From: a virus
Taxonomy: Duplodnaviria > Heunggongvirae > Uroviricota > Caudoviricetes
Strand: one strand, 5' to 3'
Virus record (IMG/VR): IMGVR_UViG_2561511241_000004
Span: 1 to 40,856 of that record
Length of the DNA stretch: 40,856 nucleotides
In this document: piece by piece, positions 7,049-10,159 of the stretch
Layout: every line of letters begins with the position of its first letter
How positions within the stretch are numbered: position 1 is the first letter of the stretch
The notes under the pieces: generated by a model
What the model was told of the DNA's origin: nothing
Databases searched by the model: none
The model's input: only the letters and a program-made list of their open reading frames with translations
Made by a program: the position numbers and the translations under genes

Positions 7049-7468
7049 CTATGATGCGTTTTGTGCTTTCTTTTTACGGATTTCTTCGTAGATCATATTG
7101 TAATACTGTTTTTTCTCTTCAAGAGTTTTTAATAAGTTATCCGCTTCACTTTCTGGCAGTTCGTCTAAGAGATCTAAAAAAATACGTTGTCGTGGCGTTA
7201 GAACCCTTGTTTCATAACTGGAGGCTGTGTTCGTTGATGATGAAACGATACCATCCATCCATCCCCGGGGTAACCCAAAGGACTCTTCGATAATCTCCAC
7301 CATATCATCAGCGATCCGTTTTTTTCCCTTTTTCCCCTCTGGGTACAACATTCTTGATACATAAGAAGGCTCGCGCCCGATCTTTCTGGCCACGTTAACC
7401 GCTTTACCATCGCATTTCTCATCACGAATTTTGATGAGTTGCTGTCGTCTAAATTCATATTTGTCCAT
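7049..7468 (-). CDS. prophage repressor (HTH DNA-binding protein, cI-like role)
   Basis: Divergent from the cro-like gene across an operator-rich spacer; start at 7468 (MDKYEF...) has no SD and sits 7 nt after a TATTAT -10, consistent with a leaderless transcript; the ORF track extends to 7522. Confidence 0.65.
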   Translation of the reverse strand: MDKYEFRRQQLIKIRDEKCDGKAVNVARKIGREPSYVSRMLYPEGKKGKKRIADDMVEIIEESFGLPRGWMDGIVSSSTNTASSYETRVLTPRQRIFLDLLDELPESEADNLLKTLEEKKQYYNMIYEEIRKKKAQNAS

Positions 7469-7487
7469 AGGTAAATAATAGATGCGA

Positions 7488-7540
7488 TTACCGCAAGGTA
7501 AACAACCTGCGGGTATTGACATTTGTTTACCTGTGGGTAT
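7488..7540. promoter_or_regulatory. OR-like tripartite operator with rightward promoter (TTGACA -35 at 7516-7521)
   Basis: Three TTACC-N4-GGTA(A/T) sites at 7488-7501, 7504-7517 and 7527-7540 overlapping the -35/-10 of the cro-like gene. Confidence 0.5.
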
Positions 7541-7568: not shown

Positions 7569-7850
7569 ATGGAAGAATTAAGAATATTTCTCAATTCTCT
7601 TTCGTCAGATGAACAGCGTATGTTTGCATGCGAGTGTGGTACCAGCATCGGTTATCTAAGAAAGGCATTGAGTAAAGGTCAAGTGTTAGGGGCATCGTTA
7701 TGTGTCCTTATTGAGCGAGCCAGTAATGGTGAAGTTACACGTCAGCAACTAAGGCCTTTTGATTGGATGAATATTTGGCCCGAGCTGGAAGATACCAAAA
7801 CGTTAACACAACCACTTTCTAGGAGCTTGATTCATGAAAATCAAGCATGA
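7569..7850 (+). CDS. Cro-like / YdaS-family HTH regulator
   Basis: 93 aa, first rightward gene after the operators; AAGGAG RBS; HTH-like segment GTSIGYLRKALSKGQ. Confidence 0.6.
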   Translation: MEELRIFLNSLSSDEQRMFACECGTSIGYLRKALSKGQVLGASLCVLIERASNGEVTRQQLRPFDWMNIWPELEDTKTLTQPLSRSLIHENQA

Positions 7851-8259
7851 ACACATCCGCATGGCGATGAATGCCTGGGCGCATCCGGACGGTGAAAAAG
7901 TTCCGGCAGCTGAAATAACCAGGGCTTATTTTGAACTGGGTATGACGTTCCCAGAACTGTATGACGACAGCCATCCGGAAGCCCTGGCTCGCAATACCCA
8001 GAAAATTTTCCGCTGGATAGAGAAAGACACCCCTGATGCAGTTGAAAAAATTCAGGCGTTGTTACCAGCGATCGAAAAGGCAATGCCACCTTTGCTGGTG
8101 GCCAGAATGCGCAGCCACAGTTCAGCTTATTTTCGGGAGCTGGTGGAGACGCGGGAGCGACTGGTGAGAGACGCTGATGATTTTGTCGCAGTGGCAATCG
8201 CCGGTTTCAATCAGATGAACCGTGGTGGCCCGGCAGGAAATGCTGTGGCAGTACATTGA
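7834..8259 (+). CDS. YdaT-like protein (Rac prophage family)
   Basis: 141 aa beginning MKIKHEH and ending ...VH, as recollected for Rac YdaT; overlaps the end of the cro-like gene. Confidence 0.55.
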   Translation: MKIKHEHIRMAMNAWAHPDGEKVPAAEITRAYFELGMTFPELYDDSHPEALARNTQKIFRWIEKDTPDAVEKIQALLPAIEKAMPPLLVARMRSHSSAYFRELVETRERLVRDADDFVAVAIAGFNQMNRGGPAGNAVAVH

Positions 8260-8330
8260 CTGACAATAGCCATATCGAATCGCTTCCGGCAACTCGTGAG
8301 TAAAAAGATTCGGTATCAGAAGAGGTGAGT

Positions 8331-9401
8331 ATGGCTAACGCCTGGCTCAGATTATGGCATGACATGCCAAATGACCCTAAGTGGCGAACAATTGCCAGGG
8401 TGTCAGGGCAGCCAATTGCAACAGTGATGGCAGTGTATATCCACCTCCTGGTGAGCGCGTCACGAAATGTCACGCGAGGTCACATTGATGTCACGACAGA
8501 AGATTTGGCAAGTGCGCTCGACGTGACAGAAGAGGTAATTGATTCAATTTTGCAGACGATGCAGGGGCGGGTACTTGATGGTGATTTAATCACTGGATGG
8601 GAAAAACGCCAGGTGCTTAAAGAGGACAACGGCAATATTTCGCAAACCGCAAAATCTCCTGCAGAGCGCAAGAGGGCGCAGCGAGAGAGGGAAAGAAAGC
8701 GGGAACAAAATGGCGATTGTCACGGCGCGTCACGAAATGTCACGCACATGTCACGACGAGTCACGACAGATAAAGATACAGATAAAGATACAGATCAAGA
8801 AGATCAAAACACTATGGTCCATGGCGTAAAAAACGCCACGAACCAGGCAGGGGATGTTCAGACCGTCAATCTTGGTCAGCCAGCAGGCACGACACCGGAA
8901 GCCGATTCAGCGTATGCGCTGAAAGCCGATTCGGGCGCTGTGCAGCAGGTGATGACCGCAAGGCCGGAGCAATCACACCAACTGCAGCAGCCTGAAGCCG
9001 ATTCCGCCATTCAGCGGGAAGCCGATCGGGTAGTCCCGGAAAACACCGGGCAGTCTGTGGGACGAGTGGATTATCCGGATGTGTTCGAACAGGTCTGGCG
9101 GGAGTACCCGTTGCGTGCCGGGGCAAACCCGAAGAAATCCGCTTTCAGTGCCTGGAAGGCCAGATTACGCGAGGGGGTGCCACCAGAGGCAATGCTGGAT
9201 GGCGTGAGGCGTTACGCAAGATACCTAGCGGTTACCGGGAAAACGGGAACGGAATTTGTTCAGCGGGCGACGACGTTTTTTGGACCGGACCGGAATTTTG
9301 AAAACCCCTGGTTGCTCCCGGTAAGCGGCACGAACAACCAGCGTTGTGTGAATCATATTTCTGAACCGGATACCGAAATTCCGCCGGGCTTCAGGGGGTA
9401 A
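8331..9401 (+). CDS. replication initiation protein: replisome-organizer-like N-terminal domain fused to a DnaT-like C-terminal domain
   Basis: N-terminus WLRLWHDMPNDPKWR; C-terminus ends ...SEPDTEIPPGFRG, like the C-terminus of E. coli DnaT; contains iterons; AGAGGTGAG RBS. Confidence 0.65.
   Translation: MANAWLRLWHDMPNDPKWRTIARVSGQPIATVMAVYIHLLVSASRNVTRGHIDVTTEDLASALDVTEEVIDSILQTMQGRVLDGDLITGWEKRQVLKEDNGNISQTAKSPAERKRAQRERERKREQNGDCHGASRNVTHMSRRVTTDKDTDKDTDQEDQNTMVHGVKNATNQAGDVQTVNLGQPAGTTPEADSAYALKADSGAVQQVMTARPEQSHQLQQPEADSAIQREADRVVPENTGQSVGRVDYPDVFEQVWREYPLRAGANPKKSAFSAWKARLREGVPPEAMLDGVRRYARYLAVTGKTGTEFVQRATTFFGPDRNFENPWLLPVSGTNNQRCVNHISEPDTEIPPGFRG
8459..8495. repeat. iteron cluster 1: four GTCAC(G/A) copies at about 10-bp spacing (candidate ori element)
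   Basis: Copies at 8459, 8469, 8479 and 8490, inside the replication gene. Confidence 0.5.
8719..8810. repeat. iteron cluster 2 (five GTCACG copies) plus A-rich tandem repeat (gataaagataca x2, gatcaagaagatcaa)
   Basis: Copies at 8719, 8729, 8739, 8750 and 8760, then the AT-rich repeat; resembles the lambda ori layout inside O. Confidence 0.5.
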
Positions 9402-9441
9402 GTGTTTATTTCAGCTCATGAGGTAATTATCAGGAGGAGTT

Positions 9442-9867
9442 GTGGCAAAAGTTTTTACACAAGAAGAGCGGGAAAAAATTAAAGGGCAGGTTGTTGAACT
9501 TGTACGCCAGAGTGGGCGCGAGACGTTACGTCAACTGGAAGCCAAGACAGGTGCGACAAGATATCTGATGAGCGTTCTCGCAAGAGAGCTGGTTGCCAGC
9601 GGCGATGTATACAACTCTGGTTACGGGTTATTCCCGTCTGAACAGGCTCGTAAGGACTGGCAAAATGCCCGCAAAAAACTCTCAAGGGCAAAGCTGAAGA
9701 AAAAAACATCTGTGGTTGATCCGGACCTTATCTGGTCGTTACCAGACGGAGAAATACGCCGCTATGACAGGCGTCTGAACATAATCTGTCGCGAGTGCCG
9801 GAATAGTGAAGTTATGCAGCGTGTACTGGCTTTCTATCAGGGGAATTTTCAGGAGGCGGCGCAGTGA
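9442..9867 (+). CDS. hypothetical protein (141 aa, GTG start)
   Basis: AGGAGG RBS 5 nt upstream of the GTG; no helicase-loader or AAA motifs seen. Confidence 0.5.
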   Translation: MAKVFTQEEREKIKGQVVELVRQSGRETLRQLEAKTGATRYLMSVLARELVASGDVYNSGYGLFPSEQARKDWQNARKKLSRAKLKKKTSVVDPDLIWSLPDGEIRRYDRRLNIICRECRNSEVMQRVLAFYQGNFQEAAQ

Positions 9868-10064
9868 GCAGGATTGACTACCAGGAATTGGCTGCTGCTA
9901 ACGCTTCCCTGGCTGATGTACGGGCGGTGGCGTTTAACGACCTTTGCGCGGCGTTTGCCAGGCACGCAAAAGTTGCAGGACTGGATGATGCCGATACCGT
10001 AACGCTTAAGGAAGTGACAGAAGCATTGTTGCATTGTGCGGAACAGATTCGCGCGCCTGAATAA
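9864..10064 (+). CDS. hypothetical protein (66 aa, GTG start, GTGA overlap with the upstream gene)
   Basis: AGGAGG RBS 7 nt upstream; translationally coupled. Confidence 0.4.
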   Translation: MSRIDYQELAAANASLADVRAVAFNDLCAAFARHAKVAGLDDADTVTLKEVTEALLHCAEQIRAPE

Positions 10065-10159
10065 TTAAATTTAGTGTTGTAAATAAAATTTAATCCTTAA
10101 CCGGAGGGATTTCTGCACCCTCAGAACATCAGGAGGCCGCCCGAAAGGGCGGTAATGAA

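Follow-up and report, generated by a model that had tools for sequence, protein, structure and literature searches.

The question raised by the viral DNA of IMG/VR record IMGVR_UViG_2561511241_000004 (40,856 nt; the whole of this stretch is called the window in the following) is where the replication of the phage starts. The layout of its open reading frames (ORFs) and its matches to lambdoid E. coli phages identified the window as a complete lambdoid E. coli prophage. The gene in question is an ORF of 356 amino acids on the plus strand (8331-9401), whose ATG start codon is preceded by AAGAGG. It matched phrog_3729, 'replication initiation protein', with an E value of 3e-257, and its name at NCBI is 'phage replisome organizer', the corresponding protein cluster comprising 5,786 member sequences. 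Across positions 8200-9500, the window shows 97-98% identity to E. coli phages, among them Tritos, Evi and 204576. The local order of genes (a repressor gene on the minus strand, a Cro-like, a CII-like, the initiator and a Ren-like gene) matches the order cro-cII-O-(P)-ren of lambda. Judged by its sequence matches and its neighbourhood, the gene at 8331-9401 is a replication initiator in the cro-cII-O position. It contains two clusters of short direct repeats and an A-rich tract, which in our opinion very probably constitute the vegetative (theta-type) replication origin that this lambdoid E. coli prophage carries within its own initiator gene.

Within positions 8459-8765, ten hexamers of the type GTCAC(G/A) were found, nine of them direct and one inverted. 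Cluster 1 (8459-8495, plus strand) consists of GTCACG at 8459, 8469 and 8490 and GTCACA at 8479. Its repeats are spaced by 10, 10 and 11 bp and encode amino acids 43-55. Cluster 2 (8719-8765, plus strand; nt 389-435 of the gene) contains five copies of GTCACG, at 8719, 8729, 8739, 8750 and 8760, with spacings of 10, 10, 11 and 10 bp, and encodes amino acids 130-145. An earlier note on this DNA had described four GTCAC(G/A) and five GTCACG repeats recurring every 10-11 bp in these two regions. All of them were located, but the inverted GTCACG on the minus strand (8522-8527), 27 bp downstream of cluster 1, had been missed. The exact hexamer GTCACG occurs 21 times in the window, and nine of these copies fall into the 307 bp between 8459 and 8765. 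Dinucleotide shuffles gave an expectation of 18.2 copies per window and approximately 0.14 per 307 bp (Poisson P ~1e-13). Elsewhere in the window no further GTCACG cluster was detected, a second array having been sought there by analogy with oriR of phage SPP1. The two clusters share an identical block of 21 nt (GCGCGTCACGAAATGTCACGC; 8456-8476 and 8726-8746), in which ASRNVT is encoded both times. This block is consistent with a duplication or with gene conversion between the clusters.

The A-rich, purine-rich tract (8766-8812, plus strand) adjoins cluster 2 directly and is proposed to be the DNA unwinding element. It is composed of three tandem 12-mers, ACAGATAAAGAT at 8766-8777 and again at 8778-8789 and ACAGATCAAGAA at 8790-8801, followed by GATCAAAACAC; in gene coordinates, the A-rich 12-mers occupy nt 436-482. 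The GC content of 0.33-0.35 at 8760-8819 is the lowest in the gene and is accompanied by a strong A-over-T skew. The claim of the earlier note that an A-rich repeat directly follows the iterons is thus true of cluster 2 but not of cluster 1. Two GATC (Dam) sites are situated inside the tract (8793-8796 and 8802-8805), with AAAGATCTAAAAGATAAA occupying the equivalent place in several relatives from enterobacteria and Aeromonas. A control of the putative origin by Dam/SeqA is possible.

The nine direct hexamers are part of a coding sequence and are read in all three frames, four times as Val-Thr, three times as x-Ser-Arg and twice as Gly/Cys-His. It had been assumed that the coding demand is met by repeated Val-Thr codons. 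This applies to four of the nine copies, the other five encoding Ser-Arg (three) or His (two). In 20,000 random synonymous recodings of the ORF that followed the codon usage of the phage, nt 121-440 contained a mean of 1.05 and a maximum of six GTCAC(G/A) hexamers, compared to nine observed. The AT content of the A-tract (0.70) was likewise higher than in synonymous recodings (0.56 +/- 0.04; P 2e-4). Synonymous sites were analyzed in 22 ungapped relatives belonging to different genera and showing approximately 55-78% amino acid identity. Within the hexamers of cluster 1 the entropy at third codon positions was 0.13 bit, whereas it was 1.33 bit outside (Mann-Whitney P 4.5e-6). In the spacers of this cluster, the codons R49 and V52 varied freely (1.7 and 1.5 bits, respectively). 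The inverted copy revealed an invariant third base of Val65 in 19 of 19 loci. In Ralstonia phage Firinga, GTCACG is changed to GCAACG (TC to CA), by which V becomes A in one frame and H becomes N in another. Among close E. coli variants, in-frame changes occurred at the repeats, namely a gain of 21 bp (two units) in cluster 1, a gain of 33 bp before cluster 2 and losses of 6 or 12 bp in the A-tract. In loci of high-GC hosts (locus GC 0.58-0.69), the 40 nt with the lowest GC content of the gene (0.17-0.35) are still found directly after cluster 2. This stretch still reads AGATAAAGATA(A/C)AGATA, and the GAT and AAA codons persist at 60-69% GC. It follows that the tract was not kept for the DKDT peptide alone, since the codon bias of these hosts would have erased it. 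Due to the reading in three frames, the excess over the recoded genes, the frozen synonymous sites and the maintenance of the tract against host GC, these results show purifying selection on the hexamers, but not on the spacers, at the level of the DNA rather than of the protein.

To what extent is this arrangement shared by other phages? A tblastn search with the N-terminal domain against isolated phages identified relatives in Aeromonas phage pAEv1818 (74% identity), Pseudomonas D3-like phages (73%), an environmental phage (48%), Ralstonia phage Firinga (38%) and cyanophages (approximately 35%). A scan of viral contigs with the same domain returned only copies that were 100% identical. When one genome per species was scanned, another 57 prophage loci were obtained, whose hosts include Gamma-, Beta- and Alphaproteobacteria as well as Acidobacteria. 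Aeromonas phage pAEv1818 and Pseudomonas phage phi1 possess GTCACG in both clusters at the same positions of the gene, with the 10/10/11 spacing and the inverted copy. Firinga contains GCAACG in both clusters and the environmental phage CGAACG in both, and in each of them a purine-rich AT tract follows cluster 2. At the equivalent position, the inverted copy exists in most relatives of the GTCACG class and, as CGTTGC, in Firinga. In nearly all relatives, including the loci with 58-69% GC, repeats of the AGATAAAGATA type directly after cluster 2 form the lowest-GC 40 nt of the gene. The agreement between the clusters was determined for 58 loci, of which 48 were scorable, an NNNACG hexamer being present at least twice in each of the two regions. 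The commonest hexamer was the same in both clusters at 43 of these 48 loci (GTCACG at 25, CGAACG at 11, GTAACG at six and GCAACG at one), while label permutation would be expected to give 17.5 concordant loci (P below 1e-5).

By contrast with these common features, the C-terminal domains and the downstream partners differ between the loci. The partner gene encodes a DnaC-like loader, a 609-aa primase-helicase or a DnaB-like helicase, or is missing altogether. The flanking genes differ as well; Firinga, phi1 and ct2G2228 lack the CII-like/DUF977 context. Only the N-terminal domain of the initiator accompanies the arrays throughout. From this it appears that the putative origin travels with the N-terminal domain, whereas the C-terminus is exchanged, and that the hexamer class co-varies with the domain, probably by few independent switches. 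A similar picture emerged for Stx phages such as Shigella phage 75/02 Stx, which have only the C-terminal part of the gene in common with the window (8923-9401, positions 724-1202 of the query; 82-83% nucleotide identity). This restriction indicates a recombination junction downstream of the candidate origin, as in lambdoid O genes.

The AlphaFold model of the initiator consists of a helical N-terminal domain (approximately amino acids 1-128, pLDDT 70-84), a disordered region (amino acids 128-243) and a C-terminal domain that spans amino acids 245-356 and is modelled with confidence at 245-330. Amino acids 130-160, for which cluster 2 and the A-tract code, belong to the predicted disordered linker. 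Those encoded by cluster 1 (43-55) comprise the end of helix 3 together with a loop of low confidence and lie within the N-terminal domain. This domain may be winged-helix-like, with a possible resemblance to DNA binders of this type, including the N-terminal domain of DnaD. A Foldseek search against the PDB gave no match with an E value below 1, and a sequence-profile search of the PDB yielded only noise. Compared with PF09681 (Phage_rep_org_N), the N-terminal domain reached 16.4 bits (gathering threshold 23.3) and an E value of 0.0096 in an end-to-end alignment. With the full-length initiator, no family of Pfam and NCBIfam was recognized; the sole match was a weak one of the last 24 aa to the C-terminus of DnaT (E 0.0015), which is only a hint as to the route of the helicase. 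The C-terminal domain had no match in Pfam. No Pfam match was obtained to the lambda O family (Phage_rep_O) either, and hhalign against lambda O resulted in an E value of 0.16 and a probability of 0.4%. The hhalign comparison of the N-terminal profile with G38P of SPP1 was not significant (E 0.41). G38P and ORF11 of Lactococcus phage r1t both match PF09524, which was absent from the initiator in the Pfam scan. The initiator and G38P both match phrog_1701 and phrog_1163, though via different parts of each protein.

Initiator genes containing characterised origins allow a comparison of the layout, the repeats of r1t, SPP1 and lambda being read directly from the reference sequences. In the present gene, the five GTCACG copies of cluster 2, 10-11 bp apart at nt 389-435, are followed by the A-rich 12-mers. 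ORF11 of r1t, a putative replisome organizer, possesses four GGAACC repeats with a distance of 11 bp (nt 316-354), to which a tract (AGATAAGAATAGATTAGATAAGAATAG and following) is joined that has nearly the same motif as the tract of the initiator gene. Gene 38 of SPP1 has about five 11-bp units (AGAAACGACAG and following; nt ~361-414) before an A-rich tract, and O of lambda has four 18-bp iterons (nt 349-433) before an AT-rich tract. In all three, the arrangement recurs at a place in the gene that corresponds to the one in the window. The similarity to r1t (L150, 4211-4300) comprises the hexameric direct repeats in the middle of the gene and the adjoining AGATAAGAATAGATTAGATAAG... tract, which is close to AGATAAAGATACAGATAAAG in the window. 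On the other hand, r1t has no second upstream cluster, a different hexamer, a DnaC-like loader gene downstream and a Gram-positive host. Its C-terminal domain is PF09524, and there is no significant N-terminal sequence similarity to the present initiator. The presence of an AGATAA-type tract both in r1t and in the phages of proteobacteria suggests a deeply conserved sequence preference in the unwinding element beyond mere AT-richness. For lactococcal phages it has been reported that ORF13 of TP901-1 and Rep2009 of Tuc2009, of which ORF11 of r1t is a homologue, bind to direct repeats in their own genes, which represent the origin, and that cloned phage origins with organizer genes give a phage-resistance (PER) phenotype in lactococci (PMC8965321).

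In SPP1, the 356-bp oriL inside gene 38 is necessary and sufficient in vitro, and its repeats are bound by G38P, a protein without an AAA+ domain (PMC5737612, PMC6316719). Like the present gene, gene 38 contains repeat units of approximately 11 bp and then an A-rich unwinding element, and two sets of repeats (oriL and oriR) exist in the phage. However, oriR is about 13 kb away, whereas the second cluster in the window is located 260 bp upstream in the same gene. SPP1 also has genes for a loader and a helicase (G39P and G40P), neither of which is present beside the initiator of the window. The origin of lambda and the Stx phages is made up of iterons and an AT-rich tract in the middle of O, and Stx-phage variants with six iterons have been described (PMC7466680). 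Lambda shares with the window the cro-cII-O position, the iterons in mid-gene and an AT-rich, A-strand-biased tract coding for a linker rich in K, D, T and E. Further common features are the variable number of iterons among relatives and the joint inheritance of N-terminal domain and origin along with an exchanged C-terminus. By contrast, the iterons of lambda are inverted repeats of 18-19 bp, lying approximately 20-24 bp apart and each bound by an O dimer, while in the window 6-bp direct cores recur every 10-11 bp. Moreover, there is only one cluster in lambda, which also has a P gene. What separates the present element from r1t, SPP1 and lambda alike is the second array 260 bp upstream, inside the region coding for the DNA-binding domain.

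The identity of the initiator, the selection at the DNA level, the layout found throughout the family, the AT tract in high-GC hosts and the precedents r1t, SPP1 and lambda together support the assignment of an origin to this gene. The lambda-like origin suggested by the earlier note, with iterons and an AT-rich element in the initiator gene, was thereby strengthened. In keeping with an iteron-type origin, there are nine direct repeats in helical phase, an adjacent AT-rich element, a cluster (cluster 2) placed in the linker between the domains and a covariation of hexamer and N-terminal domain. Cluster 1, which lies in the coding region of the N-terminal domain, departs from the linker rule.

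The most likely course of initiation is as follows. The putatively winged-helix-like N-terminal domain would bind to the 6-bp GTCACG cores in a head-to-tail manner. As the cores are one helical turn apart, the protomers may be placed on one face of the DNA, where their stacking could bend or wrap the DNA of cluster 2 into a nucleoprotein complex. The strain might open the adjacent AT-rich, purine-asymmetric tract (8766-8812). Cluster 1 and the inverted copy, 260 bp upstream, would be auxiliary sites, which either raise the local concentration of the initiator or loop onto cluster 2. The variable and exchangeable C-terminal domain would then bring in a helicase, presumably DnaB of the host, since no loader or helicase gene follows the initiator. 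The initiator as the binding protein, the A-tract as the site of unwinding, the part played by cluster 1 and the route of the helicase are inferred. Downstream of the initiator gene (window positions 9402-10100), no lambda P-like, DnaC-like or DnaB-like gene was detected, and the module looks like an 'initiator-only' type for which the helicase necessarily comes from the host.

Several observations weigh against the assignment of an origin. A 6-bp core at a 10-bp spacing is shorter and denser than the iterons of lambda or of plasmids. Searches of the accessible literature brought up no binding, replication or unwinding data for this family of initiators. Arrays of exact k-mers were not found in a minority of the relatives (L114, L117, L129, L132, L133 and the cyanophages), and L124, L131, L141 and L142 have cluster 2 but no cluster 1. 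The concordance of the hexamers must also be regarded with caution, because the hexamer classes follow the phylogeny and the 43 concordant loci therefore represent a handful of independent switches, not 43. In addition, gene conversion between the clusters, which share the block of 21 nt, could have contributed to the joint change of the hexamers.

It is also conceivable that the arrays are sites of the initiator with a mainly regulatory function, such as autoregulation, a transcription roadblock, copy-number control by handcuffing or titration of the initiator of an incoming phage (superinfection exclusion), and that the true origin lies elsewhere. Two arrays at a distance of 260 bp resemble the control iterons of plasmids such as P1 and R6K. 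Cluster 1 would fit this function in that it has no adjoining AT-rich tract and lies inside the region coding for the folded domain, and the PER phenotype conferred by lactococcal phage origins with organizer genes points in the same direction. However, the conserved AT-rich, purine-asymmetric tract next to cluster 2 has withstood the GC content of the hosts, as is characteristic of an unwinding element, and the same layout has been proven to be the origin in SPP1 and is the origin region determined for lactococcal phages. Nor does the window of 40.8 kb contain another GTCACG cluster. A regulatory role of cluster 1 would be compatible with an origin at cluster 2. A mainly regulatory function of the arrays is regarded as unlikely. 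An even lower probability is assigned to the recognition of the arrays by another factor, be it a host protein or the CII-like, Cro-like or DUF977 product of the phage. This explanation draws on the strong conservation of the putative helix-turn-helix and wing across the hexamer classes, which is contrary to a simple recognition-helix model. On the other hand, the neighbouring genes are not conserved where the arrays persist, as seen in Firinga, phi1 and ct2G2228 without CII-like and DUF977 genes, and the only constant partner is the very N-terminal domain that houses the arrays. A conserved host factor is further disfavoured by the spread of the hosts over several phyla and by the different hexamers in phages whose hosts are related.

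Finally, the repeats might have no function as DNA and have arisen by replication slippage or as a side effect of encoding a repeated peptide or low-complexity linker (SRNVT..., DKDT...). The peptide ASRNVT does occur twice, DKDT is repeated, and close variants display changes in copy number that look like slippage. Against this, different peptides (VT, SR and H) are encoded in the three frames, one hexamer is expected upon recoding where nine exist, and the synonymous sites are frozen in the hexamers while the spacer codons drift. GAT and AAA are retained even at 60-69% GC, and a single change of the DNA (GTCACG to GCAACG) explains the frame-specific substitutions V to A and H to N. An artefact of recent ancestry is excluded by the approximately 55-78% amino acid identity across genera. 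Hence, a mere by-product is the least probable of these explanations and has been largely refuted. Compared to all of them, the embedded origin is considered far more probable.

Some further elements within and around the initiator gene deserve mention. Directly after the A-tract, an imperfect hairpin (8815-8845) is formed by two 13-nt arms (TGGTCCATGGCGT and ACGCCACGAACCA) and a 5-nt loop. Its DNA fold has an energy of -8.7 kcal/mol (z = -3.5 vs shuffles), and it is not kept in the E. albertii relative L090. A palindrome is situated to the right of the AT-rich region of lambda, and the hairpin was weighed as its counterpart; whether it is part of the origin is uncertain. A possible DnaA box (ATATCCACC, 8436-8444; 7/9 matches) was dropped because the codons Y36, H38, L39 and L40 vary at their third positions (0.9-2.0 bits in the 22 relatives). 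The region encoding the disordered linker contains a direct repeat of 36 nt (8895-8930 and 8991-9026; 75% identical, 96 bp apart), which encodes PEADSA... In the close E. coli/Shigella variants P0004, P0013, P0017 and P0002, in-frame deletions are bounded by these PEADSA repeats. The variant P0020 (302 aa; four contigs, the longest of 5.1 Mb) lacks a segment that starts midway in cluster 2, takes in the A-tract and extends to the PEADSA repeat, and may be an origin-deleted, replication-dead cryptic prophage.

Upstream of the initiator gene, a DicA/CI-like repressor gene is located on the minus strand (7049-7522). It is followed by a YdaS/Cro-like gene (7569-7850), whose score for the Pfam family 'YdaS_toxin' is below the threshold (25.8 vs 30 bits), and by a YdaT/CII-like gene (7834-8259) with a score for 'YdaT_toxin' above it (39.9 vs 21 bits). 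The two ORFs share 17 nt (7834-7850), and 'YdaS_toxin' and 'YdaT_toxin' are names of the Rac-prophage type. The next gene on the 3' side of the initiator ORF is a DUF977/Ren-like gene ('LygF', 9442-9867).

The position of cluster 1 within the region coding for the DNA-binding domain leads to a further thought. The loop of amino acids 43-56 reads ASRNVTRGHxDVT in the GTCACG class, ASNATERGRTQ in the CGAACG class and ASTATQGNADAT in the GCAACG phage, while the N-terminal domain outside this loop is highly conserved across the classes. The change of the loop with the hexamer and the conservation of the remaining domain make the loop a candidate determinant of specificity. It might read the variable first three bases of the hexamer, and the rest of the domain with its putative helix-turn-helix and wing might read the invariant ACG. 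This is a speculation to which only a small chance is given. If true, the binding site and the code for its reader would be the same DNA, and if gene conversion carried a mutation across the arrays, site and reader would be altered at once, which would open a built-in way to new origin specificities incompatible with one another.

An origin embedded in the initiator gene is a textbook design, here in the style of lambda and SPP1, but it seems to be undescribed in this phage family. No description of the iterons of this family was found in the searchable literature, including the paper on the Stx-phage 'Eru' replication module, older subscription papers being outside the coverage. For a very common replication module of E. 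coli and Shigella prophages, the analysis provides a concrete origin candidate of approximately 450 bp with a 6-bp iteron and an unwinding tract, and the same layout occurs in relatives from Pseudomonas, Aeromonas, Bordetella, Ralstonia and other hosts. The gene is a clean natural case of overlapping codes, in which a coding sequence is constrained by a cis-acting DNA element in all three frames. The signature of iterons and A-tract may be used for the annotation of prophage origins and for the design of compatible phage-derived replicons. With at least four classes of iterons on one protein scaffold, the family would offer a system for studying the evolution of origin specificity and the replicon incompatibility between co-resident prophages.

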